From: a virus
Length of the DNA: 64,000 nt
Virus record (IMG/VR): IMGVR_UViG_3300027762_000294
Span: 11,469-75,468 of that record
Direction: 5' to 3' (one strand)
The translations under genes were made by a program, and so were the position numbers. Below, in pieces: positions 18,326-42,197 of this stretch. Position 1 is the first letter of the stretch. Every line of letters begins with the position of its first letter. The notes below the pieces were generated by a model. The model was not told the origin of the DNA, made no database searches, and was given only the letters and a program-made list of their open reading frames with translations.

Positions 18326-18357
18326 AAAAAAAACCCCCAACTGTATTTGTTGGGGGT
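18326..18357 (-). terminator. Rho-independent terminator for the structural operon
   Basis: ACCCCCAAC/GTTGGGGGT stem with A8 on the left (U-tract on minus strand), downstream of the TMP stop. Confidence 0.8.
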
Positions 18358-18369: not shown

Positions 18370-18477
18370 ATGAATAACAATATCAATCAAGCGGGAACTC
18401 TAATATTTATAGCTGTTATGCTGTGGTTAGTTACTCTTTTACTACCGCCGGATGCTTTTCACTTCCCTTGGTGGTAA
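18370..18477 (+). CDS. 35-aa single-TM peptide antisense to the TMP 3' end
   Basis: AGGAGG RBS; MNNNINQAGTLIFIAVMLWLVTLLLPPDAFHFPWW. Confidence 0.5.
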   Translation: MNNNINQAGTLIFIAVMLWLVTLLLPPDAFHFPWW

Positions 18478-21400: not shown

Positions 21401-24400
21401 TGGATTCTTTCAATAGACAGATCACCAAAATCACGAACCGATTGGATAACCAAGTTATCATCTCCTGTTGACAACATGTCCTTTTTCCAGTTCTCAAATT
21501 CAACATTGAAAGAAAACGCTTCTGTAAGTTTATCAATTTCAGATTGAGTCGGCAGGTTATTTCTGAACTCAGTGGCTTTAGCTAAGAGGGCGTCTTTATC
21601 CAAAAGGGTGTATGTGTTAAACGCGTCATCCCCTTTAAACTCCTTAACAGCCTCATCTAAAGATTTAGTAGTGTCTAGCAGCCAAGTCAAATATGTATCG
21701 GTGGCAGAGCTCAAATCGTCTAAATTAGCATTTCCAAATTTTTCAATTACGTCAGTACCTTTCAAACTTTCAAGGCGATTTCGCATTTTGTCAACTGAGG
21801 TTATCCCCTCATTTCTGAAATACGTTTCAACTTCTGGGGGCTTATCACCCTTAAGTTTTTCTATTGATGTCGTTAAGAAGTCGTCAAATTGTTTTTGTCT
21901 TTCTAAAGCAACTTTAGCCTTATCTTGGATAAAATCATAAACCTCAACAGGAGTCTTCTCTAATGAATTGGCTAAATCGATTAACCCTAGCTCACTCAAA
22001 GACAGCGCATCTTTGAGAACTGTGAACCCGCCGCGCATATCCCAAGTCTCATCTAAAGATATTTTCCCATGGTCTTTCATTGATTTACGCAAATCGATTA
22101 AATCTTGGAAAGAAGCAATTTGTGTAGATGCTACCTCTTCTAAACTACTTTTCGCATTTTCGAGTTCAGTGGTTATGTTTTCTAGAGATATTCCATAAGT
22201 ATCTGAAACATATTTTATTTGTTCTAATGTAATAGTATTAAGTCTTTCCAAACTTGTGTAATCAAAATCGAATAATAGATTACTCACTTCAATCGGCTTT
22301 GGCTTTTTAAGGTTATCCAGTTTATTTTGTAAATCTTCTAATTCTGAATTATAATCCTTAACCACATTAATGACTGTAGTTGGGTCCAAACCTTTAGCAA
22401 GTAAAATGTTTAGGTTATCTGCAGTTGCTTCCCAGTTCAAACCTAATTCTTTTAAAGCGTCATCAATAACAGGAGGCTCTGTTTTTCTAAGTTCGTCTTG
22501 AATTTTTAACAGAGACAACTCAATAGGTTCTTTAAAATCTTCAAGTAATTTACCCCCTAACAAATCACTAAGTTTACCTTTATCAACAAAAGAAGAAGAT
22601 TCTATGTAATCAGTAATATTGTCAAATGATAGGTTGTCCTTGATCTGATAATAATAAGTTTCCATATCCGATTCTAATTTTTTAACATCACGATTTTCAA
22701 ATACCGAATTCAATTGAGTATAAGTTTCCTTCACAACTCCCACAAGCTCGCTTAATTCTCCACTATAATTTGAATCTATTTTGAACTGCTCCCATTCAAC
22801 CAATGACCAATCAGTCAACATACTTTGGAGTTGAGGAAGCCCTAAAGTTAGACTAAATTTAGGAGTGCCAAGTTTGCTATCGTCAATGACTTTCTGAGTG
22901 TCTTTAATCCAAGCATTCTTATCGTCTACAGCTGCGTTAAATCTTTCAATGTCACTGTTATAAAAATCTTTTAAAGTAGCCAACGCATCCAAGTTAAGGA
23001 ATTGTGAAGATGTTAAATTCTTTAAAGGATCTATCTCTTCTTTCTTGGGTTGAATTGACACTTTGCTTAAATCTGTATTCTTCAACACTTCTGTAAGTGA
23101 TGCAACATCATTATTGTAAACTTTCAACAACTCTGAGAAAGTCTCGTATGTCTTAGCATTACTCCATTTATTCAATAAATCTACCGGTAATACAACCGGC
23201 TCTTTAACCTCTGCAAAAATATCAGCTAAGGGATTATTAGTTAACAACTCCATATTATTTTTAGATGCCAACATGAATGCTTCAAAATTATCAATCGTTT
23301 TGTTGGTTGTGAACTCAAATAATTCTTTATAAGGTACTTCCTCAGTAACACTATCGCTTAATAATTTGTCTACCTCTTGTAAAGAGTCTTTAAACGTTCC
23401 CAGCACGGCATAATTGTCAAGAGTTTTATCTCTCATAAATGTGATCAAAGGTGACACATCCATCACTTTAGATTTGTTATATGCTAACCATTCTTGATTA
23501 ACACCCATTATTTTGTTGCTAGCATCCGAGATAAATGAACTAACATCTTCATAGGGAATTATGCCTTCATACATCAAATTGGTTAAGTTTAGAGCATCAT
23601 TTGCTAGGAAAGATTCTAACTCGGTTAAAGATTTAGATTCAGTCCATTGAGATCCCTTTAAAACACCTGTCTTTGAATCGCCGATATCAACTCTAGCCTT
23701 TTCTAAAGAAGCGTCTATTTCTTTCATTTGTTTGATAAAATCACCCAATTGTGTATTGAATTCCTCTAAGCTCACACTAACATCAACTTGCTCAATCTCG
23801 TCAACTTTAGCTACAACATTTTTGTTTGCTTTTAACCAATCTTCAAAAGTTGACATATCTACCGCCTCAGGCATGGCAACAGAAAATTCATTCCAGAATT
23901 CACCAAACCCTGCCAACACCACACTTTGATGTAAATTCAACTCTTTAATTTTCTTATTGTTCTCGTCTATCATTGCAAACTGGGAGTTATAATCACTTAT
24001 GGAAAATTCCTTAATTTGTTCAATGTGTTCAGTACCATAAGGAGTTTTTGTGACTTGTGTCATCCCACCCGTAGCCCGAGCTTTCTCAATCGTTTCATTT
24101 ATAGATGCATTTTGACTTTCTAGTCTAACTCTGCGTGCTTTAATTACTTCGGCTTCTTTCTGTAAAGGACTTAAATCGCGTCCTTGTATTGTAGTATTAT
24201 TACCTTCTTCTTTACGTGCGGCTTCTTGTAATTTTTTAAAATTAGATGACCAAGTGTTAACCAGAGGGGTTAATCCTGCTGACAAATCTATGGTTGGTCT
24301 CAATTGTTCCCAAAACTTTCTTTGTTGATTAACACCGGCATTCGTTATTTCTTTAAACGCGTTGATAAAAGCCTCATGATCGCTCTTAAGACGATCCGCT

Positions 24401-27400
24401 TCTTCTTTAGCCCGTGTTGCAGCGTCCTCTCTAGCTTGTTGGTCAGCTTCAGCCTGTTGTTGTCTCGCATCTTCAGCAGCTTCTCTAGCCTCTTCAGCCC
24501 GTTGTGTATCAGCCTCTGCCATATCAGATTGGTTAGACGCGGCTTGAGCTTCATCTAATTGTTTACGAGTACGGGCATCTATTCCCACACTTGTAGCTAC
24601 GGGGCGTAAATCATCCTTAATTGATGACACAGTTGTCGCAAATTCTAACATTTGCTTTTGAACTTCAGGGTCGTTTAAAACTTGTTGCGTTATACTAATT
24701 ACCCCTTTAACTTGGTCTACAATTGATGCCAGAGAATTAGCAGCGGCTAAACCACCTGTTGTTAAAGCAGTCCCAGCAACCTGTCCACCCATCATCATAT
24801 CGATATTACTACTCATCAACGGACTAATGAAATTATCTTGTATTATAGTAGATATTTGTTCAACACCTGCATTGAATATAGCCTGATTCATTTGTTGCGT
24901 TATAGCCTCTGGACCTGATTCTTCCCAGTTTGTTAACATCGCACCCCAATCTAAATTAGAAAGTGAAGATTGCATATTTGCAGTTAACTTTTGAGAAGTG
25001 GTACCATATTCACTTAAGGCATTAGTCAACCCTGGAGTCAAGGAGGACAATTCTTTGAATTCTAAAGATAATTGATTCCAGTCAGACAGAGAATCTATAC
25101 TGAAGTCTTGTCCTGTAAATGCTTCTGCTAAATTTTCATATTGTGTTAAAATTGAAGACGATGTTAAATTATCCTTAACTCCTAATTCACTCAAGTTTGC
25201 ATAAAATTGTTCAACATGATCGGCGGCGTTTATTAGCGAGTTTTGTCCGGTCTCATCTAAAGAGTTAAACACGTCTATAAACCCTGCCTTTGTTAAAGGT
25301 AACGATTGACCCAATGAAGAGAATAAGTCACTCAAATCTTGGAACGGTTTAATATTGTCGGTTGTTTTGAATACATCAATGAACTTATTTAATTTTTCAG
25401 TCCCAAAATTATCTAGATCCCCGGTTTCAAAATCACGGTTGAAATTGGTAGATTGATTGATCTCTTTCAACATATTCATTGATTCAAAATACTGTTTTAA
25501 TTCTGTACCTGCGTTAATAAGATTTTCTCTACCATCTGTAATTGTCTCAAAGAAACGACTCACATCCCCTATGCTCTTTGGTAACTCTTCACCAGCATCT
25601 TCAAAAATATCAGCTACAACTTTGTTGCTACGTGTATAATTTACATCCCCAGATTTACCCACAAGCTCTAAAAAATCAGTTAAGTTTTGTCCAGTGTCAA
25701 TATCATCTGGATTTATGTCTCCCATAGTTAACCCAATCTTTTGATAAAATTTACCTAAGTCCACAAGTCCTTTCAATTTCTCTTGCATGTCCTCTGCAGT
25801 CATCATTTCATCGTCAATCAAAGTTAGAGAATCGGTTATTGTTTTGTCGATTATTTTCTTTAACCCTGCGTCCATTATGTCGTATTCCCCACTTGTTAGG
25901 GATTCTGTTATAATAGCACGGCTAGTTTCTAATTGTTTAACAATAATCTCGGCAGTCTCTTGTCCTATATCACTATAACCAGCAGTTTTCATGGCTGCAA
26001 TTACCGAGTCCACATTAACCTCAGTTAAACCACCCAAGGCAGAGGAAAACTTCTGAACTAAGGCTTCGCCACGGGGCATCTTGGACAAGGCACCATCCCA
26101 AACTGACATTCTATTTTTGATTCCTAAAGTACCATCATTTAACTGTTGAGCAATGACGTTATATGTGTCAACCATACCGTTAGTCATATTCTCACCAGCA
26201 ACAGTCAAGTTATTGAAGTAATAGCTCAAAGCTGTAGCTTTAGATAATTCCTCCATTTTGTTATTCCAGGCGTCCTGCTCACTACCACGATCATACATAG
26301 ATGAGATTGTGAACGTATGCCCTTTTAACTTCTCATTAGCCTCACTGTAGCCTCCAATTAAAGATGAACCGAACTCCTCAATAGATTTTTTGAGAGCCTC
26401 AAATGACTTGTTAAGCTCTCTCATTTGCGCCCCAGATAACTCTTCATATTCCTCTTTTGTCTTTGTGCCTCCCAGTCCTTTTTTGCTCATTCGATTTACT
26501 GTCCGAGCAGTAACACCTTCGTCTGAAATTGTTTTCTCAGTCCATGAGGCTTCCTTCTCATATTTGGCTCCTAATTTTCCTAATAACGCATTACCTAAAA
26601 TTTGAATTGCAGGACCCGCTATTTCTTTAATTCCAGGCGGTAACATTGTTGCAGCAGCAGTACTTAAACCTGCAACAGCAATACCTCCAAATTTTTGAGT
26701 ATTACTGGCTCCAGATTGAGTGATAGATGATAATGCACCCAATGCAAAGTTTTGCCAAGCTCTTTTAACGTCTTCACCTCTTTGTAAGGATGCTGCTATT
26801 TCAGCATCTTGAGCTTGCTTAGATAATTCAGAATGTGTCAATGTACTTTCCAAGAAATTAGCATTCGCCTCACTGTGTGCCTCTAACACCGATTCTAAAG
26901 CCTTACCTTGATCCTGACCTACCTTATACAAAACCTCGTCTGATTTTTTCTTTTGGTCTTCTATCAGTTTCAACTGGTCATTCATTAAACTAGCTTGTTG
27001 CTCACCAGCCTCTCCTATACCTTTCATTTGTTCTTTGAACGGTGTTAAATCAACGTTTTTAAATGCGTCTATTGTGGGATCATTTACAGCTTTAACCATT
27101 GGATTGACAACAAACAACTTATTCTTTTCTTGTGCTTTCATCCAATCTTCTAAATCTGTTTTAATAACTCCCTTCTTAGAAGAAGAAGACTCCGTAACCA
27201 TCAATTTATTTGTAACTGCATCTTTAATGACCATGACAATGTGGTCAATATCTTTATCAATGTTGCTCCCTGCACGGGCACGACCCCGGCTATAAGCTCT
27301 ATCACCATTGTCAATTCCTATAATGTCGCCTTCTTTAAGTGTATTAGTTAAACTAGCATGTTGTCCCACATCGCTAATTTTAACATTACCTGTTGCGTCA

Positions 27401-30400
27401 GCAATATTTTGAATGATACCATGAGCTGAATCTTTTACTGCTTTAAAATCCTCAGGTCCAAACACCGTTTTCCCTGCTTGTGAATTAATAGTCTCAAAGC
27501 TCTTTTGTGCCAGCAAAGATACCCAACCACTGCAATCAATTTTCTTAACTTCTAATAGCTTCTCCATACTTTCGGGTTTGCTATAATTAGAAATAGCATT
27601 CTTACCTGCGTTGATAAAATAACCAACTTTAGCAGACATCGCTTTATCGACTTCTCCACTTAAGTTGTCTAACAATGCTGTTTTGGTATTGGTTACCACA
27701 ACAGGAGCTGCCGTTTGTATTGCCCCAACTGATTCTTTTAAGCCTGCCTCGTATTTCTTGAATTCGATAGGAACGGGCAATTTTTCCCATTTACCGCCCC
27801 ATGATTTTAACCAAGCGTCAGATAAAGCTCTAAGGTCACTCCCATACCCCAACTTATTTTGTTTCAAATATGCGGCGGGTATGTTTTTTATTAGATATTC
27901 TTTGGGCACTTTTCCTGTTCTACCCATTAATAAATTTACAATATTTTTAAATCCTCCAGGACCTTGGTTGTGCATTCCCCAAGCCATTTGACCTTCTTTA
28001 ATCCCCAAATTTCTAGCTTCAGACATCGTCTTTGTGCCAACTGTTTTTTGATTTTTGAAGTAATATTTCATGGCAGCTTCTGCACTTTTGTAAGGATCAT
28101 ACCGCCCACCGGCAAAGTCTCTCATGCCTACTTCTTCCCAAGCTGGTTTTCCCATTTGATACACACCATAATAACTACCCTTGCCACCCCCACTTCGTGC
28201 TTTTTTATTAAAACTAGATTCCAAAGATGCCTTTCTTGCAAATTCAATAGGATTGATTCCATAAGCCAATGAAACTTTTTCTATAGCTTTAATTACTTCA
28301 GGATCTATTCCTGATTTATAAACCACCTTACCTGTAATCCCAGCAACAGGTCCTCCTTGTGGTGTAAATTCACTATCACTTGATTCAGAACTTGATCCAG
28401 AGTAAGATGATGAAGAATTAGCTACATTAATAACCGCGTTTTGTATGTCAAAAGTTTTTGGTTTATTTCTTTCAATCTCTTCTAAAGTTTTTATCATTTC
28501 ATCTAAAGGATCAACTATATCAGCCGGTTTCATTTCTTCTAAAGGAGCTAAATATTTCTCTGTGTTTTTCAAAGGCTCCATTATAGCCTTATCGATTAAG
28601 TCCTTCACACCGCCAGTAGCTGCCCCAAAAGCATTTTTGATTGATGTTACATCTGGGTTAGCTTGTAATAATTTGGTAGCCTCGGCAATAACATCTTCTT
28701 GACCATTACCGAATTCTTTAAACCGCTTTTCGATTTCTGTGATGTTAAATTTAACCTTTTCCAAAGTCTTTGTGTTCAACGGGTTACCTTCAAATATCGC
28801 AACGTTTTTAAGTCTCTCTTCTATTACCTTTTTAGCACCTTCACTTGACGTTTCCAGGGCTTTACTTATAGATGTTAAGTCTGGATAAGCTGACATAATG
28901 TCATTTACTTCTTTTGTCAAGGCATCACTACCTTTAGCAACGTTTGTAAGTTCCGTTTTTGTTTTCTCAATTGGGTCTAATAAATTCGATTTCAAAACGT
29001 CTTGTAATTCTTTTGATGCTTTTGGTAAATTGTCAGTCATTGTTTTCATTGTGCCGTTTTCACTCAAAAACTTATTAGCTTCCTCAACAAGAGTCTTATT
29101 ATCACCAGCTACCTTTTGAATAATTTGATTCACAACCCCGGTGTTTACTTTTAAAGTCTCAATATCCTTAGGCTTGAGTAATGACGTGAATTCTTTAGTA
29201 TCAAATATCTTGTTAAAATCAATATCCATTTTGACTTGACCGGTTTCAATATTACCCAACTTAGATATATTGTTTTCTAATACTGACTTCATGTGTGCTG
29301 TTTGATTCTTTAAAGTTTCTAGCATAGCCGCTTGTTGGTCTTTTAGGGGATTTATGAAACTATCCTCCAATCCTTTATTACCTGCCTTTAAAGCTGCATT
29401 ACCGGCGCTTGCAATCTGTTCTCGTTCTTTAGTGAAACTGGTTAGAATTTTCTCACTACCTTGGTCACTAACTCCCTTCAAAGTAAGAAGTTGAGCATTG
29501 ATAAACTCGGTACTTTTTTCATTCAACGTTGTCAAATAATTCTGAAAATTAACTCGGTTTGTTTCAATCTCATTGGTAATTTCTTGTCCTCCGGACACAT
29601 CGTAAATTACAGGTTTCAATTGTTTCATCAAACCTTCTAACAAAAATGCGTTAAATTGTTTTTTGGTAAAATCATGAATAACTTTAACAGCGTCATCAAA
29701 ATTACCTGTGTCTAATAAGGTAGAGAAAAATGAAGAAACCGCTTCTGTAACTGAGTCAATCCAAGATCTGAACGATTCAATTCTACTTCCTAAGGAATTA
29801 TCTAACTCTGTGTTAAATTCTGCCCACGATTTAGTTAACTCATTTAACTTATTAAGGTCTTCACTTATGCTAGGGGCATGTTTTTTCTTGTTTTCATCTA
29901 ATTTTTCAAATTCGTCTGTGTACTCTTTCATCTTATTTCTAACATCTTTCACTGTTGCTGATTTACGCTCCGGTCTATCATCTGTTATATCCTTAACCGT
30001 TTTGAATATGTTAAGAGTATCCACTTCATTTACACCGGCTTTTAAGTCTTTCAACCCTTTGACAACATTCTTAACCTCGTCCCCATAAACTCGTGGGGCT
30101 TCCGGTTTGAATATTTCTGTGTTAAGTCTACCCATTCTAGACTTAAGCTGTTCAAATACATTCCCTATGTCTTCATCATTTTTACCTACATTCTTCAATT
30201 CTCGGATTAAATCAATCGTTTGTGTGATCTTGTCAACATCACCATCAACCTCAATTTTATAACTGAAAACGCGATCACTAAGCTCAAATATATCTTCTTC
30301 TTTAGTCATCCGTTTATTAGTAGCCTTCAAATGATCCTTCATTTTCTTGTATTCTTCAGATTGCCAACGCAACTGGTCATCCCACTTTTTAGACTCAAAT

Positions 30401-33400: not shown

Positions 33401-36400
33401 ATCATATAGGTTAAGGTAACGTCAGTTTCTATTTGATTGACTTCACTAGCAGTCAACTGAGACCCTGCTTTTTTGATTGCCAATGAAACATCACTATTGA
33501 TAGACTTAAGGATATCCTCTACTTTCTTTTTTGTATCTCCTAAAAGAGTGTCAGCACTGAAATCACCATCTTTTAATGCTTCGTTAAATGCCTTTATGTC
33601 TATATCCGGTTGAATAGCATACTTAACTTTCATACCTTCATTAGCTAACTTACCTGCGACATACCCCTCATCTTTACTGAATAGTCTTGTAAAGAAATTA
33701 CCACTATCCTTAGTATTCACTTTAGTGTTGTGCTTTTGTAATTCAGAAGTTGCATTTGTAATATCCAAGAGTTTTGTCTTTCTCAGAAAATTATCCGTTA
33801 TTCTAACAGACGTACTTAGATTGTTTAAATCGAGCTTAGCATGATCCTTTTGAATGACCGTTTCTAATTTTCCCAACGTGGCTGCAGATATACGATCATA
33901 CTCGTCCAACAAAGACGTCATACTCAAATTGCCAACTTTTATAGCCTCTTGTTTAAGCACTCCCAACAGAGCTTGGTAACGTTTAGGTTCCTCAGTTTTA
34001 AGTTTGTCAATGTCAATATCAAAATCAATAGCAACCCCCACACTAGCCCCAGTCTTTGCGTATCGTGTATTAAGTTGGTTTTGAGTTTGGGTCATAGAGT
34101 CTCTAACTTGCTTAAACTCGCTTTCCTTACCTAAAATTTTACTTACAAGATTGGGATCTAACTTACTAATGTAGTTGTTAACCTCTGCTTTTAAGTTAGA
34201 CTCTACAGCCTTCTCTTTTTTGAACTCGGTCGCAAGGTTAATGAACTCTTTAGCATCATCATTACTTTTGCTGATTTCTTCTAAGAAAAAATCTTTAAAC
34301 TGTAAGACAGCTTTAGTTCTCAACATGCTCAAATTTTTATTAACATCTTCTTGTTTTAAATCCAGCCCTTCCCCACTCATGGGACTTTTCATTCTCTTTA
34401 ATTGAGTATTTAGTAAATGGTCGGCACTCTTAAACTTCTCAAACATCAATGTGTAAAATTCATCATTACTTATATCTAAAGATTTAACAAACCCTTTGAT
34501 TAAATTGTTGTTGACTTCGTAAGCAATTTTAGGATTTAAATCTAGACCAACTCCTTTTGCTTGCTTAGTCACCAAATCCCGCTCGTCCTTTAAAGATCTA
34601 ATTTGTCGTGTTGTGTCTATGCTTGCTTTGGTGTTTAAATACCCTGCTTTAATAAAATCCTCTAACTTGGTCAATTGGTCTGTTAGTTTAGTATATTGCT
34701 CAGTATATTCAACTCTTTTTATCCCTTGGACTTCTTCCTGTTTAGAAGCTTTCATTTTATTGTTGAGTTGGTATATGTCCTCAAATTGGTTTCTAGATTT
34801 TACAGGAGGTTCAACACTCACATCTACAGTTTTAACAAGTTGAGGTTCAACCAAAATTTCATAGCGCTTTTTTAGCATTTCTTTTTTAAGAATTGTGTCG
34901 TCTGCTATTAAGGTCACTGTTTGTGGAATGGGCTCCTCAAAATAAGACATGACGGCATTATAACCGCTGTATTCAAGGATTAAATTTTTTAAAGCTTCGC
35001 CATATTTTCCTAAACTTTCTGTTAATTGGTCAAACGACATATCCTCAATAACTTTAATAAAACTGTAAAATGCGGAGGCAACAGCTAAAACCAAAGTGGG
35101 TAATGTGGTTAACATGGTAAATAATTTGTTTCCCTTTTGAAAACCTACCATGGTTTTGTGCAAGAGAATAACAGCGGCAGTTAAAGCAGCCAGCAACATT
35201 AACACATTGGGAGTGTCTTTTAAGAATATTCCTGTAATTGCCCCTACAATCAAAAATATCATTTTGTATTTACCAAACATGACAGAGAGGTACCCACTTT
35301 GGGCAATGGTTAGTAAAGATAAACCCATGATCACTAACGATAAATTGTCTACCTGTTTGGCAAAATTAACAATTAAAGGGGACATAACAGAAAACAGAGC
35401 GGCTATGATTCCCAAAGGATTGCTCACTTTAAAAAAAGCCATTCCCACTACAGTGATAACTGACACTATATCCAAGAAACCTATATTTAAACTTTTGATT
35501 TTGTTGCTGATTGTGTCAAATAATTGCCCTACTCTTTCGAGCATAGTAACGTCTAAATTTTCTAAATCTACAGTTACAGTTTCCTGTAAATTATAAGAAA
35601 CGTATTTGTTAACTTCCTCTATAATTTGTGCACTATTCTTTTTATCTTTGAATTGTTGGTAATTCCTTAGTCCCATGTCCACGACACTATTGCCAGGGGC
35701 TGCACTTACAAATCCCAATTCAGAAGCATGGGCTTTATTCATTGTAGACTCTAAAGATAACCATCCCGTCATTACAGCTGCAATCCCCAATGTCCATTTA
35801 GCAAACGGGTTTAACGCTCCTAAACTCACAAAGGAAGATTTAACACTTCCCATTATTTGCACTATATAGGTTAAGGCAGAAATCAATGGGGTGAATTTCA
35901 ATCCCACGGTCGAAAACGTCATGCTCATTATGAGACCCAATACTTTTAGCACAGCTGTTAATTGAGATATTACTCCCATTAAACTTTTAGAATGTTGGGT
36001 GATTAGAACAATAGATTTCAAGAAATTCAAATGAATAGCATTGCGTATAATCAAGAACACTTGCGCTAAACTTTTACCTTGTCTTATCAGTGAATACGTT
36101 TGAAATGAAATTGTAGCAAAGAATAACATTAGTACCGCGATAGGCAGCGATTTCTCAAAACTGAGAACGGCTGTAACAAGCAATCCAATAGCAGACACTA
36201 AGGCTAATAAAGGCAACATTGTTGATAACATCCCTATTTTCAGTAATGCTAGGGCGGCGGTTAAAAATCCAATGTAAGTTAAAGATTGTGACCACGAATT
36301 ATTCAAAAGGATGATGACGTTCACAACTGCCAACACTGGACTTATGAATGCTGATAACACGATCAAAGCTAACGTCATACTGGGAATTACAGCGTTCATA

Positions 36401-39400
36401 ATGGTTGACGCCAACGCCTTTAAAATCTCAACAATGGGTCCCATCATATACATCACAGCCCCCATGATTGCGATAGAAACCATTTGACTTTTTACCATTC
36501 CCAAAATACCACTGGTTGCTGTAACAACCGATTGTCCAAATCCTTTAACTACAGCTCCGACTTGTGCAACAGCCCCTGAAAACACCCCAGTTGTTTTCAC
36601 ACTGTTTCCTATTGTGGAGTTGTATCTTTCTTGGACTTTGGAGTTTTCTTCTAATATTTTTCGCTCTTCTAACATAGACGCTAATTTAGCTTGTTGTGCC
36701 GCTATACTAGCCTTACCCTCATTGGTCTTTGGATCACTCACGTCTTTAGTAGCTGTTAAAACGCTGGTTTGCAATTTAATATCTAAAGATTTTTGCAATA
36801 ACTCCGCTTTGTAGTCTCTATAAAAATTAGCATTAAACTTTCCTGCTGTATCTCTAACAGAAGTCAGCGATTCTCCCGTAAGTGTTTTGAATGCATCCCT
36901 GATTATTTTAGGGTCTGTTAACAGTTTTATATCTCTACCGAATTCTTTGGACAACCCCTTCATTATTTTGTCTACATTCTTTGGGTTGTCTGCCATAACT
37001 TTGTCATAAACGTTTTGTGGAATTTTATAAAATTCCTTAAGAGAATTAGCTATTTTATTAACATCTTTCTCCGGGTATTGCCATATAGGTTTCCCTTGTC
37101 TGTCAAGACCTACATGAGGATGGATAGACCCTATTAGAGACTGAATTTTAGTCATGTCACCCTTGTAATTCAAAAGGTCTTTTGTTAATGCTGCCAATTT
37201 ACTATTATCAGGTCCTTTTAAAAATTCTCCTGCTTTAGCCTGCCCGCCAATAATATCCCTGTAACTGCCGGTCGAGGGCATAAGGATTGAACGTTGTGTC
37301 TCAAACGATTTATTAACCTTCTCAATATTAGCTGCACTGAATGAAGCTAATATTTTTTGACCCATTTCCCGTCGGTTATCTTCTAATGTCTTAGCTAATA
37401 ACGTATTTCCTGATTTATTAGCTGCGTTAATTTTGCTGGTAATATCTTTGTAATATGCCTCCATTCCCAAAGTTTTTATAGAAACTGAAGGGATGCTAGA
37501 ACTGAGAGCAGTTTTTAGCCCTATTGCACCTTTGTGGGTTTTTAGCAACGCCTGTCCTAACATTGCCAACGCTGCTATTAAAATGGTGATTGAGAGCGTA
37601 AAATTGTTATCTACAAATGAAGCAATGCCCTCTATTACATTGAATATGCTATTAAAAAAGCTTATTAAGGGACCGATGTAAGTGCTCACCTTTGCTACAA
37701 TGGCTGCTAGGGAATCCAACAAAAACACAATGATATTTGAAACGTCAGACAACCGCTTATGGAAAATTTCTACCACCTCAGCAGGTAACAAATTAGTATA
37801 AAAATCTTCAAAACTATCCGCTTTCTGATATAGGTCATTCATCCATAACGCTACGTATGTTAATACGGGAACGATTAAGGATTTTAAACCAAACCCAAAC
37901 TTCATCAACGCGGCAATGTACAACATTAATGACGTAAAGGCATTATTATCTATAAACTCCAGTTTACCTAAATCTTTTAAAACAAACAGCCCTACCAAAA
38001 GGGTTTTGTACATGTTTGCAAATGTTAACACCGGCTTTAAGAAACTAACAAAACGCCCCAATAACGTTATGGCAGGGGGTGTTACAGTTGTCATTTTGAT
38101 GAATATCCCAGCCACTATTAAGATGTATGCCCTGAAGTTCGTAAATCCTTCATAAAACCAAATCTGAAAATCTCTCAAGCCCGTGGTCAAACCACTAATA
38201 CCTTGGTTTATTCTGTAGATAGCTCCCACGGTTTGACCTAATAACATAGCTGGAGCTGATAGTGCTTTTCCACTAAGGGTAAAGAGTGTTTTTAATAACG
38301 CAGTTGTGGCAATCAATGAATTGCTTCCTGTCGATAACACAGTGTTTAACTCCCTAAACATGTTCATTATCACAGAGCCTAAAGCCTCAAGGGTATATAC
38401 ATCTTCGCCCATTGAGCTCAAATAACTAATGTTGGTTACCAACCCTCCCACGAGCAAAGAAGCGCCCCGAACATAACCTCCAAAATGTAACATTGCCACC
38501 CCGAGCAACGCCATTTTAGCAGGCAATCCTTCAAGAGCGTCACCATAATCCAATATACTAGATACAAAAAACATAGATATGCCGGTTGATGAAAAGGATG
38601 AGCTTATAATAAACAACCGTGTTAATGACGCTGCCAGCTCGTCAGATACTTTAATTACAAATAAAGATAGTCCTTTAGTATCTAACGCTTCGATACTTTT
38701 AATTAAACTGACGGGACCCCCTAACGCATTTAGCACGTCTATTGCTAATTTTTGAAAATTAGTTGATACAGACTCGACATCTGCCTTGAGACCTTCCTTA
38801 TCTTCTTTTAACATTAGGGTTGTATACAGCCCCCCGCGCAACAATGCTCTGGTATTGCTAAACACTACTCCTAAAAATTTCAGTTGTAGTGTTAAACTTT
38901 TTAAATCCTCTTCCGGAAACCACTTATCCACTGTAATAGGAGGATCTTTTAAGTTTGTCGAATATACCCCATGTAAAGATTTAATACTTAAGTCTACAGT
39001 AGACAAAATAAACGCTGTCTGTTTCGTGGCTTTGGACAAATTGTTAAATAACAACGTGTATAACGTCAACTTTTTTAAACTTTCCACAGGGACCGTCACA
39101 TTAGGATCGTAAGTTATAGCCCCTTGAACAGTATGTAGCTTTTTAAACTCAGAAAACAAAACGTTAATACCATCTGTGACCAATTTAGTATATGATAACA
39201 CTAGGTCTACCACAAACTTGTAAAACATCTCAATTTCAACAAATAGCGACAAAACGGTAGTTAAATTAAGCAGTTGTATAACTGTCGCAATCATCGCCCC
39301 GTAAGATAATATAGTATGAAGAGGTAGTGCGATTTTCGATAATGCTGTGAAACTACCTTGAATTTTAGTAATAACCGCAACAATATGTTGCCCCGACAAT

Positions 39401-41676
39401 TTAATTTTAAAAATCATCATGGTCAAATTATCATAAAACTGTTGATTTGCCTCCCTATTATGGTTTAACGCTTGATTATAAGAATTAGTTTGAGTTATAA
39501 CAGCTGCTATAATTGAAGGAAGCCGCTCTGCAAATACAGTCCCTAACTTAACATCAAATACCATCAACATTGAAGCAAATAATGAAGTTGCCCCTAACTT
39601 TGCTAAATTAAAAGCTTTTATTACGGGCATAAACCCGGCTAACCATGTAGATATAATAGCAACATCAAATGTTGATTTAAATTCCCCAAATTCAATTCCC
39701 AACAGTAAGAAATCAGTTATTAATGAGGATAATATAACACGTAGCAATATGAAATTTGTAAATATTTCATTCAGTGCCACTACTTCTTGTTTTGAATTAC
39801 GCATAAAAACGATAGGGGTTGCGTTAATCTTTTTGGCATTCTCTAAGATGTTGCCTTGAGCTAGTATCACTTTCAAAAAAGGACCTACATAATTGTCTTC
39901 ACTAAGATAGTTATTAAGTCTCATTAAGGTAAAAAACATTTTGATCTTTGACAAAACAACCATCATCAAAGCTGCTAACTTTGACATTTGCACACCCATC
40001 AACACTAAGAGTGAAACAGATGTTTTTTGGGAATGTATGATTTGGAGCCAGATTGTAACAATCGCAACTTTTTCATAAAATAGAAACATCGTTGACGACA
40101 AATCTAAGACACTCAAATGTAACAAATTTAATTGATGAAACAAATAAACTATGTTGTTATACATAGCATTGTTTAATACCAAAATTTTTGCAGTTGCACC
40201 CGGTATTGTGTAATAGAATAACACCAATTTACCGATAGTTGTTAAAGTGTTACCTACCCCAATTCCCAACTTTCTAAAATAGGTTTCAATACCGTCAGTT
40301 CGTCTGTAAAGTAAGTCCACCTTTTGCAATGCTGTAACATACGCTTGTAAATGGGTATTCATAGTTGAGGCATTAATAACCCAATTATCGATTAACGTCA
40401 TAGTCAGAAATCTGTTAATTCCAGTTTTGAAAATCTCTAAAGAATTATTCAATGACTCCAAACTTGATTTAACCCTATTTAAAGTTCTAGCCATCAAAAA
40501 CGTAGCATATATTGTATAGGTTCCTATGTTTTTCAACAACGTAACTATCATCAACCCTACTTGTCTAGCATCATTAGTAACCCCTCTCAAAATGATGGAA
40601 ATAATCCCATATTGGTGTTTAATAGGGTTTATAAATCCTGCAAAAAAAATCTTTGCGTCATTTTGAAGTCTGAGCATTGTTTTTTCACTAGCCGACAGAT
40701 TAACCCCGATGGGATTTTCTTCAAAATAATTTTCAATTACATCATTCAAGGCTTTGAGAGTATTCACATCAATCGGCATAACTCTTGGTAATAATCTGAT
40801 TCCATAATCTTTAATATTAGTTTTGAATTGTTGGTATTCATCCCGCTTTGTACTTTTAGATTCCCGACTCCGTATATAGTCTACCTTATCCTCTAATTCA
40901 TCCCAGTCAATAGGGTTAAAAAAACTTTTCTTAGTTGTCGATCGGTACTCTTCAATTAATTCCTTCAACCCTCCTTGGTAGTCATTAACAGATTTACCCG
41001 CCTTAAGCATATGATCCGTGAGACCCTCTACTTCATTATTGATTTTCTTTAAATCCGCGGATTGTTCTCTCAAATTAGTTAAATACGCCGTGATTAAGTC
41101 AGCATCAAAACCCAACGTATATGCCTTCATGAAATGTTCTTTGTTACGAACGTTTTCATCTTTTAAAATTAACATCAATAGTCTAAATTCTTTGATGTGC
41201 TCAGATGCAACGTTTATACTCCTCACTATGGAGTCATCTAAGTATGATGAGTTTTTTACGGTTTCTCTAATAGAATACCCAAAAGTCTTACTAAATGTAC
41301 TCAACTCTTTAATATATTCCCCTATATCCCCAACACTATCCTCAACTCTTAAATCGGTTGTTAACTCTTTGATGATGTCCGCATACGACATGCCTGTTTT
41401 GGACTTAATCTGGTCTACTAAATCTACAATAACACTACGTTCTTTTTGGTATATTTTCGCAAGTTTGTCAATTTCTTTGTGTATATCAAAAAATCCCAAA
41501 GCCTCTACCGAGGGTGACATCAATTGGGTTAAAGATTTTTTAGCATTTTTCAACGCTGTTAAATCAAAATCAAATTTTATTTTAAACTCATTATCAAAGA
41601 TAGACGACAAAGACTTGCCGATTTTATCAAGCCCTCGCTCCTCAAAATTAAGCCTTACACTTTCGGTTATTAACAT
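18442..41676 (-). CDS. Giant tape measure protein (7,744 aa) with internal lytic transglycosylase and NlpC/P60 domains
   Basis: Long helical/coiled-coil composition, many hydrophobic segments in the first ~2,300 aa; LESS...YGVYQMG...HNQGPGG; IDCSGWVS...DHIVMV; C-terminal YEVGTSYV...AEIHKGEIIV typical of TMPs; AAGGAGG RBS. Confidence 0.85.
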   Translation of the reverse strand: MLITESVRLNFEERGLDKIGKSLSSIFDNEFKIKFDFDLTALKNAKKSLTQLMSPSVEALGFFDIHKEIDKLAKIYQKERSVIVDLVDQIKSKTGMSYADIIKELTTDLRVEDSVGDIGEYIKELSTFSKTFGYSIRETVKNSSYLDDSIVRSINVASEHIKEFRLLMLILKDENVRNKEHFMKAYTLGFDADLITAYLTNLREQSADLKKINNEVEGLTDHMLKAGKSVNDYQGGLKELIEEYRSTTKKSFFNPIDWDELEDKVDYIRSRESKSTKRDEYQQFKTNIKDYGIRLLPRVMPIDVNTLKALNDVIENYFEENPIGVNLSASEKTMLRLQNDAKIFFAGFINPIKHQYGIISIILRGVTNDARQVGLMIVTLLKNIGTYTIYATFLMARTLNRVKSSLESLNNSLEIFKTGINRFLTMTLIDNWVINASTMNTHLQAYVTALQKVDLLYRRTDGIETYFRKLGIGVGNTLTTIGKLVLFYYTIPGATAKILVLNNAMYNNIVYLFHQLNLLHLSVLDLSSTMFLFYEKVAIVTIWLQIIHSQKTSVSLLVLMGVQMSKLAALMMVVLSKIKMFFTLMRLNNYLSEDNYVGPFLKVILAQGNILENAKKINATPIVFMRNSKQEVVALNEIFTNFILLRVILSSLITDFLLLGIEFGEFKSTFDVAIISTWLAGFMPVIKAFNLAKLGATSLFASMLMVFDVKLGTVFAERLPSIIAAVITQTNSYNQALNHNREANQQFYDNLTMMIFKIKLSGQHIVAVITKIQGSFTALSKIALPLHTILSYGAMIATVIQLLNLTTVLSLFVEIEMFYKFVVDLVLSYTKLVTDGINVLFSEFKKLHTVQGAITYDPNVTVPVESLKKLTLYTLLFNNLSKATKQTAFILSTVDLSIKSLHGVYSTNLKDPPITVDKWFPEEDLKSLTLQLKFLGVVFSNTRALLRGGLYTTLMLKEDKEGLKADVESVSTNFQKLAIDVLNALGGPVSLIKSIEALDTKGLSLFVIKVSDELAASLTRLFIISSSFSSTGISMFFVSSILDYGDALEGLPAKMALLGVAMLHFGGYVRGASLLVGGLVTNISYLSSMGEDVYTLEALGSVIMNMFRELNTVLSTGSNSLIATTALLKTLFTLSGKALSAPAMLLGQTVGAIYRINQGISGLTTGLRDFQIWFYEGFTNFRAYILIVAGIFIKMTTVTPPAITLLGRFVSFLKPVLTFANMYKTLLVGLFVLKDLGKLEFIDNNAFTSLMLYIAALMKFGFGLKSLIVPVLTYVALWMNDLYQKADSFEDFYTNLLPAEVVEIFHKRLSDVSNIIVFLLDSLAAIVAKVSTYIGPLISFFNSIFNVIEGIASFVDNNFTLSITILIAALAMLGQALLKTHKGAIGLKTALSSSIPSVSIKTLGMEAYYKDITSKINAANKSGNTLLAKTLEDNRREMGQKILASFSAANIEKVNKSFETQRSILMPSTGSYRDIIGGQAKAGEFLKGPDNSKLAALTKDLLNYKGDMTKIQSLIGSIHPHVGLDRQGKPIWQYPEKDVNKIANSLKEFYKIPQNVYDKVMADNPKNVDKIMKGLSKEFGRDIKLLTDPKIIRDAFKTLTGESLTSVRDTAGKFNANFYRDYKAELLQKSLDIKLQTSVLTATKDVSDPKTNEGKASIAAQQAKLASMLEERKILEENSKVQERYNSTIGNSVKTTGVFSGAVAQVGAVVKGFGQSVVTATSGILGMVKSQMVSIAIMGAVMYMMGPIVEILKALASTIMNAVIPSMTLALIVLSAFISPVLAVVNVIILLNNSWSQSLTYIGFLTAALALLKIGMLSTMLPLLALVSAIGLLVTAVLSFEKSLPIAVLMLFFATISFQTYSLIRQGKSLAQVFLIIRNAIHLNFLKSIVLITQHSKSLMGVISQLTAVLKVLGLIMSMTFSTVGLKFTPLISALTYIVQIMGSVKSSFVSLGALNPFAKWTLGIAAVMTGWLSLESTMNKAHASELGFVSAAPGNSVVDMGLRNYQQFKDKKNSAQIIEEVNKYVSYNLQETVTVDLENLDVTMLERVGQLFDTISNKIKSLNIGFLDIVSVITVVGMAFFKVSNPLGIIAALFSVMSPLIVNFAKQVDNLSLVIMGLSLLTIAQSGYLSVMFGKYKMIFLIVGAITGIFLKDTPNVLMLLAALTAAVILLHKTMVGFQKGNKLFTMLTTLPTLVLAVASAFYSFIKVIEDMSFDQLTESLGKYGEALKNLILEYSGYNAVMSYFEEPIPQTVTLIADDTILKKEMLKKRYEILVEPQLVKTVDVSVEPPVKSRNQFEDIYQLNNKMKASKQEEVQGIKRVEYTEQYTKLTDQLTKLEDFIKAGYLNTKASIDTTRQIRSLKDERDLVTKQAKGVGLDLNPKIAYEVNNNLIKGFVKSLDISNDEFYTLMFEKFKSADHLLNTQLKRMKSPMSGEGLDLKQEDVNKNLSMLRTKAVLQFKDFFLEEISKSNDDAKEFINLATEFKKEKAVESNLKAEVNNYISKLDPNLVSKILGKESEFKQVRDSMTQTQNQLNTRYAKTGASVGVAIDFDIDIDKLKTEEPKRYQALLGVLKQEAIKVGNLSMTSLLDEYDRISAATLGKLETVIQKDHAKLDLNNLSTSVRITDNFLRKTKLLDITNATSELQKHNTKVNTKDSGNFFTRLFSKDEGYVAGKLANEGMKVKYAIQPDIDIKAFNEALKDGDFSADTLLGDTKKKVEDILKSINSDVSLAIKKAGSQLTASEVNQIETDVTLTYMIKTGLRFDDKVYKDLNDAADAITKQENLINFEIDAILKKTASMGRKTQSQTAKLTELQSRKTVEEVVGFLGIEDGMKKLESATEFSLGVMGDIQSKIASSFSSAKDLIKIDPTASLKIAKMGVDNVAKMTMMLDDEILNLKEVIEYKGVQYSIEEQMELKQLETKRALLASQQVIGSTLIKDSEKELEKLAEVVKSNPITKFLNNWVGKRETGGVHAEMLGKIKSVKEFFKLEITSLSENLVLRPTFKVDPSSLTNIKDVYKVYEKTQQIGIEHIQSKVMEGLTEQEKFLAEKMKDMVVRTEKEGEELRNSLIKAFSLGSMMTLKNKTKNMSRERVESDNDKLNIANQLTNKDIFSDEERESLKYDLSSAMMIESAADAYKTYISNESNINDLIFKRLKFSREEVDLIKQKIESQGKLKELYELTNKFKHSEYDYIGDESVKASFLYKDTIGDSGLSTDEAAGLENTIIQNKLTTLRNAIKSEVFDKMSELDKLKLMLTNFGKDANEIQEIVSSYQADLREAYQTKLKNFDIFEGVGNELTGLVKSGVVDVESYERTKELEHSNVLYKTMTSSLTGLIKFEANSLNLSKEKTEELIQTAKLREDELSFLKSVVDLENKQSTTTSLGRTVSQEYLKPLLNSPKLSVDDNARNVIYQEMLNEETDKLTAVQLGREGALLELVAGRLNLSKEEIRAIQTKKEETEQLIMLSEAENSYAKELKFNLAEVGSSLTKILTLKGGSVGMIAELNDVGFDKAELEARLSTKAGELNYQLDLVKATKEEREAILQNYKARTKDVDLLKQKAAFQEELVKPIDTVGTNLNQGFKAGLISQGELGALAVSREEEKGAGILRDMALNRELLTASQQQALDVAEKKTKILEKEKTRLEEINELSSKRIELTEYLNNQTISLAKNETNFIDQFISERGNLKNSLEDMKQNLSGKSRDGEKTSSQLFGPNVDLSKLNEAQKQSAEILTRQYNTLTQITAQYEKRKSLLTELKDTEKFESKKWDDQLRWQSEEYKKMKDHLKATNKRMTKEEDIFELSDRVFSYKIEVDGDVDKITQTIDLIRELKNVGKNDEDIGNVFEQLKSRMGRLNTEIFKPEAPRVYGDEVKNVVKGLKDLKAGVNEVDTLNIFKTVKDITDDRPERKSATVKDVRNKMKEYTDEFEKLDENKKKHAPSISEDLNKLNELTKSWAEFNTELDNSLGSRIESFRSWIDSVTEAVSSFFSTLLDTGNFDDAVKVIHDFTKKQFNAFLLEGLMKQLKPVIYDVSGGQEITNEIETNRVNFQNYLTTLNEKSTEFINAQLLTLKGVSDQGSEKILTSFTKEREQIASAGNAALKAGNKGLEDSFINPLKDQQAAMLETLKNQTAHMKSVLENNISKLGNIETGQVKMDIDFNKIFDTKEFTSLLKPKDIETLKVNTGVVNQIIQKVAGDNKTLVEEANKFLSENGTMKTMTDNLPKASKELQDVLKSNLLDPIEKTKTELTNVAKGSDALTKEVNDIMSAYPDLTSISKALETSSEGAKKVIEERLKNVAIFEGNPLNTKTLEKVKFNITEIEKRFKEFGNGQEDVIAEATKLLQANPDVTSIKNAFGAATGGVKDLIDKAIMEPLKNTEKYLAPLEEMKPADIVDPLDEMIKTLEEIERNKPKTFDIQNAVINVANSSSSYSGSSSESSDSEFTPQGGPVAGITGKVVYKSGIDPEVIKAIEKVSLAYGINPIEFARKASLESSFNKKARSGGGKGSYYGVYQMGKPAWEEVGMRDFAGGRYDPYKSAEAAMKYYFKNQKTVGTKTMSEARNLGIKEGQMAWGMHNQGPGGFKNIVNLLMGRTGKVPKEYLIKNIPAAYLKQNKLGYGSDLRALSDAWLKSWGGKWEKLPVPIEFKKYEAGLKESVGAIQTAAPVVVTNTKTALLDNLSGEVDKAMSAKVGYFINAGKNAISNYSKPESMEKLLEVKKIDCSGWVSLLAQKSFETINSQAGKTVFGPEDFKAVKDSAHGIIQNIADATGNVKISDVGQHASLTNTLKEGDIIGIDNGDRAYSRGRARAGSNIDKDIDHIVMVIKDAVTNKLMVTESSSSKKGVIKTDLEDWMKAQEKNKLFVVNPMVKAVNDPTIDAFKNVDLTPFKEQMKGIGEAGEQQASLMNDQLKLIEDQKKKSDEVLYKVGQDQGKALESVLEAHSEANANFLESTLTHSELSKQAQDAEIAASLQRGEDVKRAWQNFALGALSSITQSGASNTQKFGGIAVAGLSTAAATMLPPGIKEIAGPAIQILGNALLGKLGAKYEKEASWTEKTISDEGVTARTVNRMSKKGLGGTKTKEEYEELSGAQMRELNKSFEALKKSIEEFGSSLIGGYSEANEKLKGHTFTISSMYDRGSEQDAWNNKMEELSKATALSYYFNNLTVAGENMTNGMVDTYNVIAQQLNDGTLGIKNRMSVWDGALSKMPRGEALVQKFSSALGGLTEVNVDSVIAAMKTAGYSDIGQETAEIIVKQLETSRAIITESLTSGEYDIMDAGLKKIIDKTITDSLTLIDDEMMTAEDMQEKLKGLVDLGKFYQKIGLTMGDINPDDIDTGQNLTDFLELVGKSGDVNYTRSNKVVADIFEDAGEELPKSIGDVSRFFETITDGRENLINAGTELKQYFESMNMLKEINQSTNFNRDFETGDLDNFGTEKLNKFIDVFKTTDNIKPFQDLSDLFSSLGQSLPLTKAGFIDVFNSLDETGQNSLINAADHVEQFYANLSELGVKDNLTSSSILTQYENLAEAFTGQDFSIDSLSDWNQLSLEFKELSSLTPGLTNALSEYGTTSQKLTANMQSSLSNLDWGAMLTNWEESGPEAITQQMNQAIFNAGVEQISTIIQDNFISPLMSSNIDMMMGGQVAGTALTTGGLAAANSLASIVDQVKGVISITQQVLNDPEVQKQMLEFATTVSSIKDDLRPVATSVGIDARTRKQLDEAQAASNQSDMAEADTQRAEEAREAAEDARQQQAEADQQAREDAATRAKEEADRLKSDHEAFINAFKEITNAGVNQQRKFWEQLRPTIDLSAGLTPLVNTWSSNFKKLQEAARKEEGNNTTIQGRDLSPLQKEAEVIKARRVRLESQNASINETIEKARATGGMTQVTKTPYGTEHIEQIKEFSISDYNSQFAMIDENNKKIKELNLHQSVVLAGFGEFWNEFSVAMPEAVDMSTFEDWLKANKNVVAKVDEIEQVDVSVSLEEFNTQLGDFIKQMKEIDASLEKARVDIGDSKTGVLKGSQWTESKSLTELESFLANDALNLTNLMYEGIIPYEDVSSFISDASNKIMGVNQEWLAYNKSKVMDVSPLITFMRDKTLDNYAVLGTFKDSLQEVDKLLSDSVTEEVPYKELFEFTTNKTIDNFEAFMLASKNNMELLTNNPLADIFAEVKEPVVLPVDLLNKWSNAKTYETFSELLKVYNNDVASLTEVLKNTDLSKVSIQPKKEEIDPLKNLTSSQFLNLDALATLKDFYNSDIERFNAAVDDKNAWIKDTQKVIDDSKLGTPKFSLTLGLPQLQSMLTDWSLVEWEQFKIDSNYSGELSELVGVVKETYTQLNSVFENRDVKKLESDMETYYYQIKDNLSFDNITDYIESSSFVDKGKLSDLLGGKLLEDFKEPIELSLLKIQDELRKTEPPVIDDALKELGLNWEATADNLNILLAKGLDPTTVINVVKDYNSELEDLQNKLDNLKKPKPIEVSNLLFDFDYTSLERLNTITLEQIKYVSDTYGISLENITTELENAKSSLEEVASTQIASFQDLIDLRKSMKDHGKISLDETWDMRGGFTVLKDALSLSELGLIDLANSLEKTPVEVYDFIQDKAKVALERQKQFDDFLTTSIEKLKGDKPPEVETYFRNEGITSVDKMRNRLESLKGTDVIEKFGNANLDDLSSATDTYLTWLLDTTKSLDEAVKEFKGDDAFNTYTLLDKDALLAKATEFRNNLPTQSEIDKLTEAFSFNVEFENWKKDMLSTGDDNLVIQSVRDFGDLSIERIHHLAETLNLTIEEVQTEISRTKDRFNEIKSAVTDSFAGFINDEVKFDTTDPKLIGIGFKNTFLSWINGALPSNEEFQEWQQILEVKKGHVEWLKSLKTSEELIDPSKLKDIKFLEYSDIVNLSEKYNVSLDTVKSSIESTKSWFEEMNGLVTDALIKPQTPDITMYKSYTSKNNFDLNGIINSMSKDGLDSTQIKLGVEELLKPWVELAEENTTLISTIESYTAPKKIDLSERVGEIERLTQEINDLRSSITNVTKEEVKPSYLENPIRFLENIKLDLEKLKAKIDELTSSYENTRGVIEGHLKTLNNTPDSNPFKAIEDKAQSLMDAYTDLVNKNKEVMDSINNAINELDPVLSPVDNLKKIRDDNLADFQKGLEKEKETLQNASDSKIAILEQEMENIRSILDSFAGKTKDLTRQIMELRNQQPSKDTAYQALKSSIQNISDSNIIEENYSEYYNILQKEHEEKLAMIDEELSAKQQALDDYKQMLEDIAAKAKETIHNMTMSEDAALSFGEREAYIKSEIQTARANKDYSKEIDFIQEYNGLMREGYASGDKYIEAFHSNIARLRELENVQASADNVTKLSGDVTLAEAKKMEANEAYAAQLISLRELINGTAHMGVKMDEVKLEVQTEKDALVAALAALDESLKVEEARLNEILKTELITLRDQTRENQERQESVLKLETDRELNLLLGESKKVYDLELLKLQAQIDNTNILLLNQGYFESLITTAKETTQSINLLPDNFGRVVENAILRETPADLSQLTQLREMTTLLKVIADKSPIINVNATIPTEAVTKVASIQQTSIAAVTKVASIQQTSTAVAPKVTPVQPAVMSSQVQIPKSIQTDVAALKNELDRAQRYGKTLFGGSVEAREKNNVYIAELEKRLKAMGSYEVGTSYVAENQVAEIHKGEIIVDPKSSEVLRKYGIKVEPMKVNQPGDNLNLNKVENLLERQLDVQIKTLVATNKIGAPKASERLPPREVKSIRR
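18948..19026 (-). repeat. 42-bp period in-frame duplication (AVTKVASIQQTS twice) near the TMP C-terminus
   Basis: TAGAGGTTTGTTGTATTGATGCAACCTTAGTGACTGC at 18948 and 18990. Confidence 0.9.
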
Positions 41677-41717
41677 AAAATTAGCCTCCTTCTTAATCCA
41701 AGAAAAGAAAAAAAATA

Positions 41718-42197
41718 TTATACATAGTTTTTAGCATCAACCGACAATTCTAGTTTGTTGATGTTGTCTCCTGTCACTGTCAATTTACGAGACTTTATGA
41801 CACCGTAGAGATAAGGGGATACAAATATTCGCTTTCCTACATTCAATTCAGGGACGTTCATGATAACAACATCCACATCCAAAATAATCACGGTCATCTC
41901 ATTTTTCCAGGCTAGAATTCGGTAATCATACATTGTCGATTCAGACCAGTCCTGGTGTAAATTGAAATCAGGTTCGTAATATCCCACATAAGGCAACTCA
42001 AGCATGTATTCTACTGAAAACATCGGACCCGTGCTCTCTAAATCATAACCCCCTAATTGAGACTCATTAACATTCAAAAATTTAGCAGTCTTGCTCTTTT
42101 CCATAGGAAACATTGAAAATGGAAAAAAGAACAATGGGACCGTATAATTACCGGGTCTTGGTTTATCTGCTATCGCATAAATTTTACCGTTTATCAT
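41718..42197 (-). CDS. Putative tail protein (159 aa)
   Basis: Position in the tail operon and beta-rich composition; no motif. Confidence 0.45.
   Translation of the reverse strand: MINGKIYAIADKPRPGNYTVPLFFFPFSMFPMEKSKTAKFLNVNESQLGGYDLESTGPMFSVEYMLELPYVGYYEPDFNLHQDWSESTMYDYRILAWKNEMTVIILDVDVVIMNVPELNVGKRIFVSPYLYGVIKSRKLTVTGDNINKLELSVDAKNYV

Follow-up and report, generated by a model that had tools for sequence, protein, structure and literature searches.

The stretch of DNA analysed here (the window, 64,000 nucleotides) corresponds to bases 11469-75468 of a single contig of 75,468 bp which is, judging from the genes it carries, the genome of an uncultured tailed phage of freshwater and sediment. 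The GC content of the window is 36-40%. Convergent with a late operon on the minus strand, the plus strand encodes a ribonucleotide reductase, a thymidylate synthase, a Dam methylase, an L,D-transpeptidase, an SLT protein, a primase-helicase, a family-B DNA polymerase, the large terminase, a nuclease and a clamp-like protein. For the DNA polymerase (13596-15356), the match to PF03175, the family of protein-primed PolB enzymes, stays below threshold (22.2 versus 25.8 bits). Far from the lysis cassette, at 4153-5873 on the plus strand, the gene for the YkuD L,D-transpeptidase (PF03734, E 5e-23) directly precedes that for the second SLT-domain protein of the genome, a combination of cell-wall-remodelling enzymes that is unusual in a phage. 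Because cell-wall enzymes are encoded, the gene content points to a bacterium with murein as the host; the window contains no tRNA genes and no prophage relatives were found, so that no particular host is predicted. The contig ends in a perfect inverted terminal repeat of 7,167 bp (window 56834-64000 and genome 1-7167) that may have been built by the assembler, and that places the same array of small, early-type ORFs at both ends. Its outermost 333 nt (window 63668-64000; genome 1-333) are palindromic, with the first 100 nt inverted at 234-333, and could represent either a hairpin telomere or the read-through by the assembler of a fold-back end.

In order of transcription, the minus strand starts with a 345-aa ORF, a 176-aa acidic protein in the usual position of the scaffold, the capsid gene, two small ORFs and the genes for proteins of 831 and 502 aa. 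The 345-aa ORF (55914-56951) lies in the portal position and gives a weak match to phrog_145 (E 0.007, profile positions 268-372 of 493, C-terminal two thirds). Its first 39 codons fall inside the inverted terminal repeat, and the 1.6 kb upstream hold no ORF of more than 70 aa. No full-length portal gene turned up in the genome, which may mean that it is split or has diverged strongly. The major capsid protein (54198..55358) is of the P22-coat type (phrog_283, E 1e-34; PF11651), its nearest relatives being those of the Nanhaivirus siphophages R5C and Pan1, at ~25% identity. After the 502-aa gene comes a group II intron, whose domain V/VI is found at 48106-48191 (Rfam RF00029, 56.8 bits, E 1.7e-8) and which probably reaches to about 49013, followed by ORFs of 254, 197, 187 and 195 aa. 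The called TTG start of the 254-aa ORF falls within the intron, and the 197-aa ORF (46798-47391) encodes a protein with a ParB-like nuclease domain (a weak match, E 4e-4) amid tail and lysis genes. The lysis genes consist of an endolysin (44955..45545) with PG_binding_1 and Peptidase_M15_3 domains and an overlapping 81-aa membrane protein (44722-44967) that is a possible holin. The operon then continues with an 843-aa protein (42194..44725), beta-rich by its composition and with no significant family match, which is a candidate tail-tip or receptor-binding protein, and with a 159-aa ORF (41718..42197). The latter adjoins, and the former lies two genes upstream of, the giant ORF that is the main subject of this work. 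Searches of the PDB by sequence with the 831-, 843- and 345-aa proteins, and with the enzyme region of the giant protein described below, were uninformative.

The clearest tail genes are those of the 502- and 831-aa proteins. The first (49004..50512) is a tail tube protein of the Phage_tube_2 type, as indicated by phrog_290 and by language-model features: all 30 of its 30 nearest clusters in the ESM Atlas are Phage_tube_2 tail-tube proteins (0.97), and its Atlas model (pTM 0.75) superimposes on one such cluster with TM scores of 0.67/0.79 over 389 residues. An AlphaFold2 model made from five sequences was poor (pLDDT 46.4), and its top PDB match in Foldseek was the tail tube of P74-26 (8ed0, E 2.7e-4); T5 pb6 (rank 5), T1 and Hcp-type tubes were also among the matches of this weak model. 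A portal identity for the same protein, suggested by a weak PDB match (E 0.22), was discarded as noise given the tail-tube clusters and the alignment to its paralogue. This second tail-tube paralogue is the 831-aa protein (50608..53103), in which residues 437-819 align to the 502-aa protein (hhalign 99.9%, E 6e-34, 32% identity) after an N-terminal extension of 436 aa. The tube protein has relatives with identities of 66%, 42% and 36%; pattern scans of viral, metagenome and genome collections found none of the contigs that carry them. None of the proteins scanned matched a sheath family, so the tail is probably non-contractile; as far as its genes can tell, the phage is a long-tailed one.

The last gene of the operon occupies 18442..41676 on the minus strand. 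The uninterrupted ORF of 23.2 kb, 36% of the window, described by the first-pass annotation is borne out: it is a single frame of 7,744 codons, from an ATG start to a TAG stop with zero internal stops, that takes up 31% of the 75,468-bp genome and encodes a protein of 7,744 aa and 863 kDa with a pI of 5.2. A Shine-Dalgarno sequence (AAGGAGG, 41685..41691) lies 8 nt 5' of the ATG, and a hairpin followed by a T-run, resembling an intrinsic terminator (18333..18357; nine pairs, six of them GC), lies ~85 nt 3' of the stop. The protein contains 2.1% proline. When compared with itself by BLAST it shows one weak internal repeat only, and the frame is therefore not an expansion by tandem copies.

A frame of this length could be an artefact or chimera of assembly, all the more so as it comes from a metagenome contig with a perfect 7.2-kb inverted terminal repeat, a structure that assemblers can mis-build, and as two contigs of another sequencing run (X4) imply skips of 10,254 and 2,560 nt. 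However, the joints of these two contigs have just 20-21 nt on their shorter side and a depth ~4x that of the phage, a pattern typical of other organisms or repeats, and the assemblies of four other studies give the same order without indels. Near-identical DNA is present in public runs of about eleven studies, which sampled lake water, the subsurface, wetland, soil, aquatic sites and freshwater sediment, the last being the probable source (runs with shares below 0.2 were not aligned and carry little weight); no RNA runs are listed among them. We aligned contigs of four runs, from four studies independent of the source, to window positions 21750-41749, and they are colinear over these 20 kb at 95-100% identity. 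In run X2, seven end-to-end contigs span the whole 20 kb at ~99% identity, and the bins covered amount to 30 of 30 in X4, 29 in X6 and 23 in X5. None of the four runs has an insertion or deletion inside the giant ORF over this interval, the sole indel of the alignment being at the intergenic position 41706. The remaining part of the ORF (18442-21749), outside the contig alignment, is covered by C-terminal protein fragments: the exact 7,744-aa protein is recorded from two JGI contigs, a separate ENA assembly encodes the C-terminal 1,010 aa at 99% identity, and shorter fragments are found on two more JGI contigs. Synonymous-codon choice in the giant ORF also correlates with that of the rest of the genome, as sampled in nine genes (r 0.78), and the thirds of the ORF correlate with one another (0.76-0.93). 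The giant ORF is real and intact; the chimera that the first-pass annotation had named as an objection to its own reading was looked for, and four independent colinear studies, an ORF free of indels and mostly synonymous changes leave it with a negligible probability.

The same alignment informs on selection. Among the 40 best-supported substitutions in the giant ORF, 29 fall in third codon positions, and 26 are synonymous versus 14 non-synonymous; even the codon of the only Cys of the protein varies synonymously in other populations. This predominance of third-position and synonymous changes, which also speaks against a chimera, indicates that the giant reading frame is under purifying selection. 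In metagenomes from two other studies, one block of 201 nt (26589-26791, minus strand; aa 4962-5029), which codes for a hydrophobic segment rich in Gly and Ala, is too diverged to align and yet identical in length, with flanks that are ~99% identical. It is not a DGR target, because the genome holds no template copy of it elsewhere.

The giant protein has a modular layout. Its first 500 residues are soluble and rich in heptads. At aa 70-192 (41101..41469) they match PhageMin_Tail (PF10145), the domain that forms the N-terminal core of TP901-type tape measure proteins (TMPs), at a level below threshold (E 0.17, 12.1 bits versus a cut-off of 33.2, not significant). Two blocks of transmembrane-like hydrophobic segments follow on the Kyte-Doolittle scale, one at aa ~550-1380 (37537..40029) and a denser one at aa ~1720-2210 (35047..36519; mean value 1.14 over aa 1751-2000). 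Together they comprise ~16 such segments, counted as sixteen clusters of 19-residue windows with values above 1.6. The stretch from aa ~2250 to 4400 is a long coiled coil, charged and with matches of the SMC type, in which Tape_meas_lam_C (PF09718) gives a sub-threshold match at aa 3947-4011 (29644..29838; E 0.03, 14.8 bits versus a cut-off of 23). The enzyme region comes next. It starts with an SLT lytic transglycosylase domain (PF01464) at aa 4465-4548 (28033..28284), whose 22.5-24.3 bits are above the gathering score of 21.3 and which is overlapped by a weak match to Phage_lysozyme2. It continues at aa ~4700-4830 (27187..27579) with the motif IDCSGW, which includes the single Cys of the whole protein (Cys4715), and a downstream DIDHIV whose His lies 96 aa after the Cys. 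These motifs may mark a putative Cys-His peptidase of the NlpC/P60-like kind; this stretch has no HMM match at E values up to 5 and no sequence match in the PDB. An AlphaFold2 model of the SLT/Cys region, made with no alignment, was unusable (pLDDT 37.8). After the enzyme region, the chain continues for 2,900 helix-biased residues with a heptad-dense end at aa 7001-7500.

Composition and periodicity favour helix along this chain. Hydrophobic periodicity of the helix type exceeds that of the strand type in 64% of the windows of the giant protein, versus 27-47% in the capsid, tube and 843-aa proteins, and strict heptad windows make up 17% of it, versus 1.5-4% in shuffled sequences and 0% in the same three kinds of protein. 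The predicted helical and coiled-coil character is drawn from composition, periodicity, heptads and SMC-type matches.

Is this protein the tape measure? The search for families gave a blank answer at the level of significance. None of the TMP family models that we tested, including PF10145, PF09718, PF06791, PF05017 and TIGR01760, reached its curated cut-off; the two matches given above (E 0.17 and 0.03) were the best, and neither NCBIfam nor PHROGs yielded a TMP family. There are about 50 weak Pfam matches along the protein, and the two that are specific of TMPs, PF10145 in the N-terminal part and PF09718 in the coiled coil, fall in plausible positions. For aa 1-2040, the nearest clusters by language-model features bear the names minor tail protein or tape measure protein (0.93-0.94), with a recognition value (1882) that is low and under the level for strong evidence. 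No homologues were found among proteins of 4,259-13,552 aa, nor by tblastn of three 3,000-aa pieces against 50,697 GenBank phages, nor in pattern scans of IMG/VR with two 5,000-aa pieces, and a search for shorter homologues returned a near-identical fragment only. A phmmer search with aa 1-1200 against 1.84 billion representatives was blank too, a weak negative given that in its 90% cluster the giant protein is stood for by the 1,010-aa C-terminal fragment, which is probably why the query did not even match itself. In these collections the giant gene thus appears as a sequence orphan.

Another argument comes from the rest of the genome. A phage with a tail tube needs a tape measure, and the presence of tail-tube proteins therefore implies that this phage needs a ruler. 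No second candidate for this role is encoded, because every other protein of more than 300 aa is accounted for: ribonucleotide reductase, ThyA, the SLT protein, primase-helicase, DNA polymerase, terminase, capsid and the tube paralogues are assigned, and the two that remain are the beta-rich 843-aa protein and the weakly portal-like 345-aa protein. The giant protein is the only long, helix-biased protein of the genome. Transmembrane and peptidase domains are characteristic of many TMPs (PMC10770324), and the giant protein shows this trait in its hydrophobic segments and in an SLT domain above the gathering score.

Gene order speaks against this reading. The canonical TMP gene sits between the tail assembly chaperones, expressed through the G/GT frameshift, and the genes for the distal tail and hub. 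The giant ORF lies outside this chaperone-TMP-Dit position. It comes at the end of the late operon, with the convergent replication genes downstream, and between it and the tube genes lie the group II intron, five small ORFs and the lysis cassette. Neither a tail assembly chaperone ahead of it nor a distal-tail or hub gene behind it was recognised. The TMP hallmarks claimed by the first-pass annotation hence stand in part, with helix bias, hydrophobic segments, the SLT domain and the tube genes on one side, and an atypical gene order and the lack of a significant TMP family on the other.

A rival reading is that the protein is not a tape measure at all, but a giant capsid-internal or ejected protein akin to the virion RNA polymerase of N4 or to a fusion of the T7 ejectosome proteins gp14/15/16, the true ruler being small or having escaped recognition. 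T7 gp16 is an expelled, membrane-spanning virion protein with SLT activity, and the vRNAP of N4 has 3,500 aa. An SLT domain and membrane-inserting segments would also fit podovirus proteins such as gp16, the gene is away from the tube genes and near the lysis genes, and all TMP HMMs stay below significance. Yet the T7 ejectosome and the N4 polymerase are stored in the capsids of short-tailed phages without tube proteins, whereas the phage described here has clear tube proteins and is not a podovirus. Its 75-kb genome would be left without any other helical protein of TMP size, and the language-model neighbours of the giant protein are tail and tape-measure clusters. Nor is a polymerase motif of the DxDGD type present in a convincing context: the giant protein lacks the pattern [DN]xD[GA]D altogether, and its DxDxD motifs, at aa 2551, 2553, 3811 and 4807, all lie within helical or enzyme contexts. 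We consider this explanation quite improbable. The absence of significant TMP-family matches, the orphan status, the gene order and the unusual number of hydrophobic segments lower the case for membership in a named family without supplying a better explanation, and the giant ORF is probably the gene for the tape measure of an uncultured phage with a long and probably non-contractile tail.

A tape measure of this size has to be compared with the largest ones studied. Gp96 of the Thermus phage P23-45 has 5,002 aa for a tail of 800 nm, that is 0.16 nm per residue (PMC10770324), in agreement with the first-pass annotation, which had given ~0.15 nm per residue and Thermus TMPs of about 5,000 aa. 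It contains membrane and metallopeptidase domains, and its residues 327-1124 fold as an RNA polymerase (PMC10770324). As in gp96 and in the TMP of P74-26, we would have here the giant, single-gene ruler of a non-contractile phage, in which domains for the membrane and for peptidoglycan cleavage are embedded (PMC10770324), and the tail tube of P74-26 is, with a weak model, the best PDB match of the tube protein. The differences are substantial as well. No sequence similarity to P23-45 is detectable by tblastn; the metal-binding motif DFDGD of the two-barrel RNA polymerase domain that P23-45 bears in the N-terminal part is absent; where P23-45 has a metallopeptidase, the protein described here has an SLT domain; it has many more hydrophobic segments; and the phage has two tube paralogues. 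P23-45 and P74-26 come from hot springs, whereas this phage comes from freshwater, sediment and subsurface samples. Their proteins have 5,002 aa and their tails measure from 800 nm to nearly 1 µm; the protein presented here is 55% longer. A second comparison is with the TMPs of TP901-1-type and staphylococcal siphophages, which presumably share the same order of parts: a PhageMin_Tail-like domain, hydrophobic segments, a coiled coil and a lytic transglycosylase. Unlike them, the giant protein is 4-8 times longer and continues for ~2,900 aa after the enzyme region, and its PF10145 match (E 0.17) is not significant.

By extrapolation, at 0.15-0.16 nm per residue the 7,744 residues would predict a tail of 1.16-1.24 µm, or of at least ~0.85 µm if ~2,100 aa, those of the hydrophobic blocks and of the enzyme region, do not contribute. 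A ring of a tail tube measures ~4 nm, so the prediction from the full chain would amount to ~290 rings. That the first-pass annotation placed such a tail among the longest of phages is fair; its idea that the length serves to cross a thick sheath or capsule is speculative. The tail could also be clearly shorter than 1 µm, for instance 0.4-0.8 µm, if the protein resides in the tail lumen and is ejected, with only part of the chain acting as a ruler. This could come about through a polyprotein-like cleavage, or if some part of the chain, such as its hydrophobic N-terminal 2,200 aa, were folded or housed in the capsid or neck. The modular build, with soluble residues 1-500, two hydrophobic blocks, a coiled coil, an enzyme region and a helical part of 2,900 aa, would suit such a division, and lambda gpH and T5 pb2 both undergo processing. 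The ~16 hydrophobic segments are moreover, to our knowledge, far above the few of characterised TMPs, and we know of no other TMP with so many transmembrane-like segments. On the other hand, the frame is conserved over all of the 20 kb aligned, which shows that its whole length is needed, whatever the purpose, and the whole 5,002-aa TMP of P23-45, folded RNA polymerase included, scales at 0.16 nm per residue (PMC10770324). We therefore hold a ruler that measures with only part of its chain to be unlikely, although less so than a protein with no measuring function.

If the giant protein is the tape measure, its mode of action can be proposed by analogy with lambda gpH, T5 pb2 and P23-45 gp96. 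In the growing tube the chain, mostly alpha-helical, would be extended and present in a few copies, and the tube proteins (the 502-aa one, and perhaps that of 831 aa) would polymerise around these. Growth would end once the chain is covered, in such a way that the length of the tail would track the length of the chain. At infection, the giant protein would be expelled first; the SLT domain, and possibly the Cys-His peptidase, would cut peptidoglycan, and the ~16 hydrophobic segments would insert in the membrane and line a channel for the DNA. That the protein acts as a ruler, sets a tail of this length and is ejected is in each case an inference. In its fullest form, our proposal is that the whole chain of 7,744 aa rules a non-contractile tail of ~1.2 µm, made from two tube paralogues, in a widespread 75-kb phage of freshwater and sediment, and that this ruler is at the same time a large ejected machine for crossing the envelope, whose C-terminal 2,900 aa may hide further activities. 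Taken in its entirety this is a tentative proposal, to which we grant somewhat less than an even chance. There is a precedent for such hidden activities in the RNA polymerase carried by the ruler of P23-45 (PMC10770324).

Giant TMPs are already a known kind, studied up to 5,002 aa in thermophilic phages. What sets this one apart is the 31% share of the genome that it takes up, its wide environmental occurrence and its orphan sequence, in a genome that is itself notable for its terminal hairpin-like palindromes, its 7.2-kb inverted repeats, its two tube paralogues and the intron in its tail module. Should our reading be true, this tail would be the longest of any virus measured, and a ruler of 7,744 aa in a small phage of non-thermal samples would extend the known range by half. 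It would also raise a question of assembly, namely how some 290 tube rings are polymerised faithfully, and one of cost, as almost a third of the genome would be spent on reach. Micrometre tails, if the reading is true, would be no oddity of hot springs.
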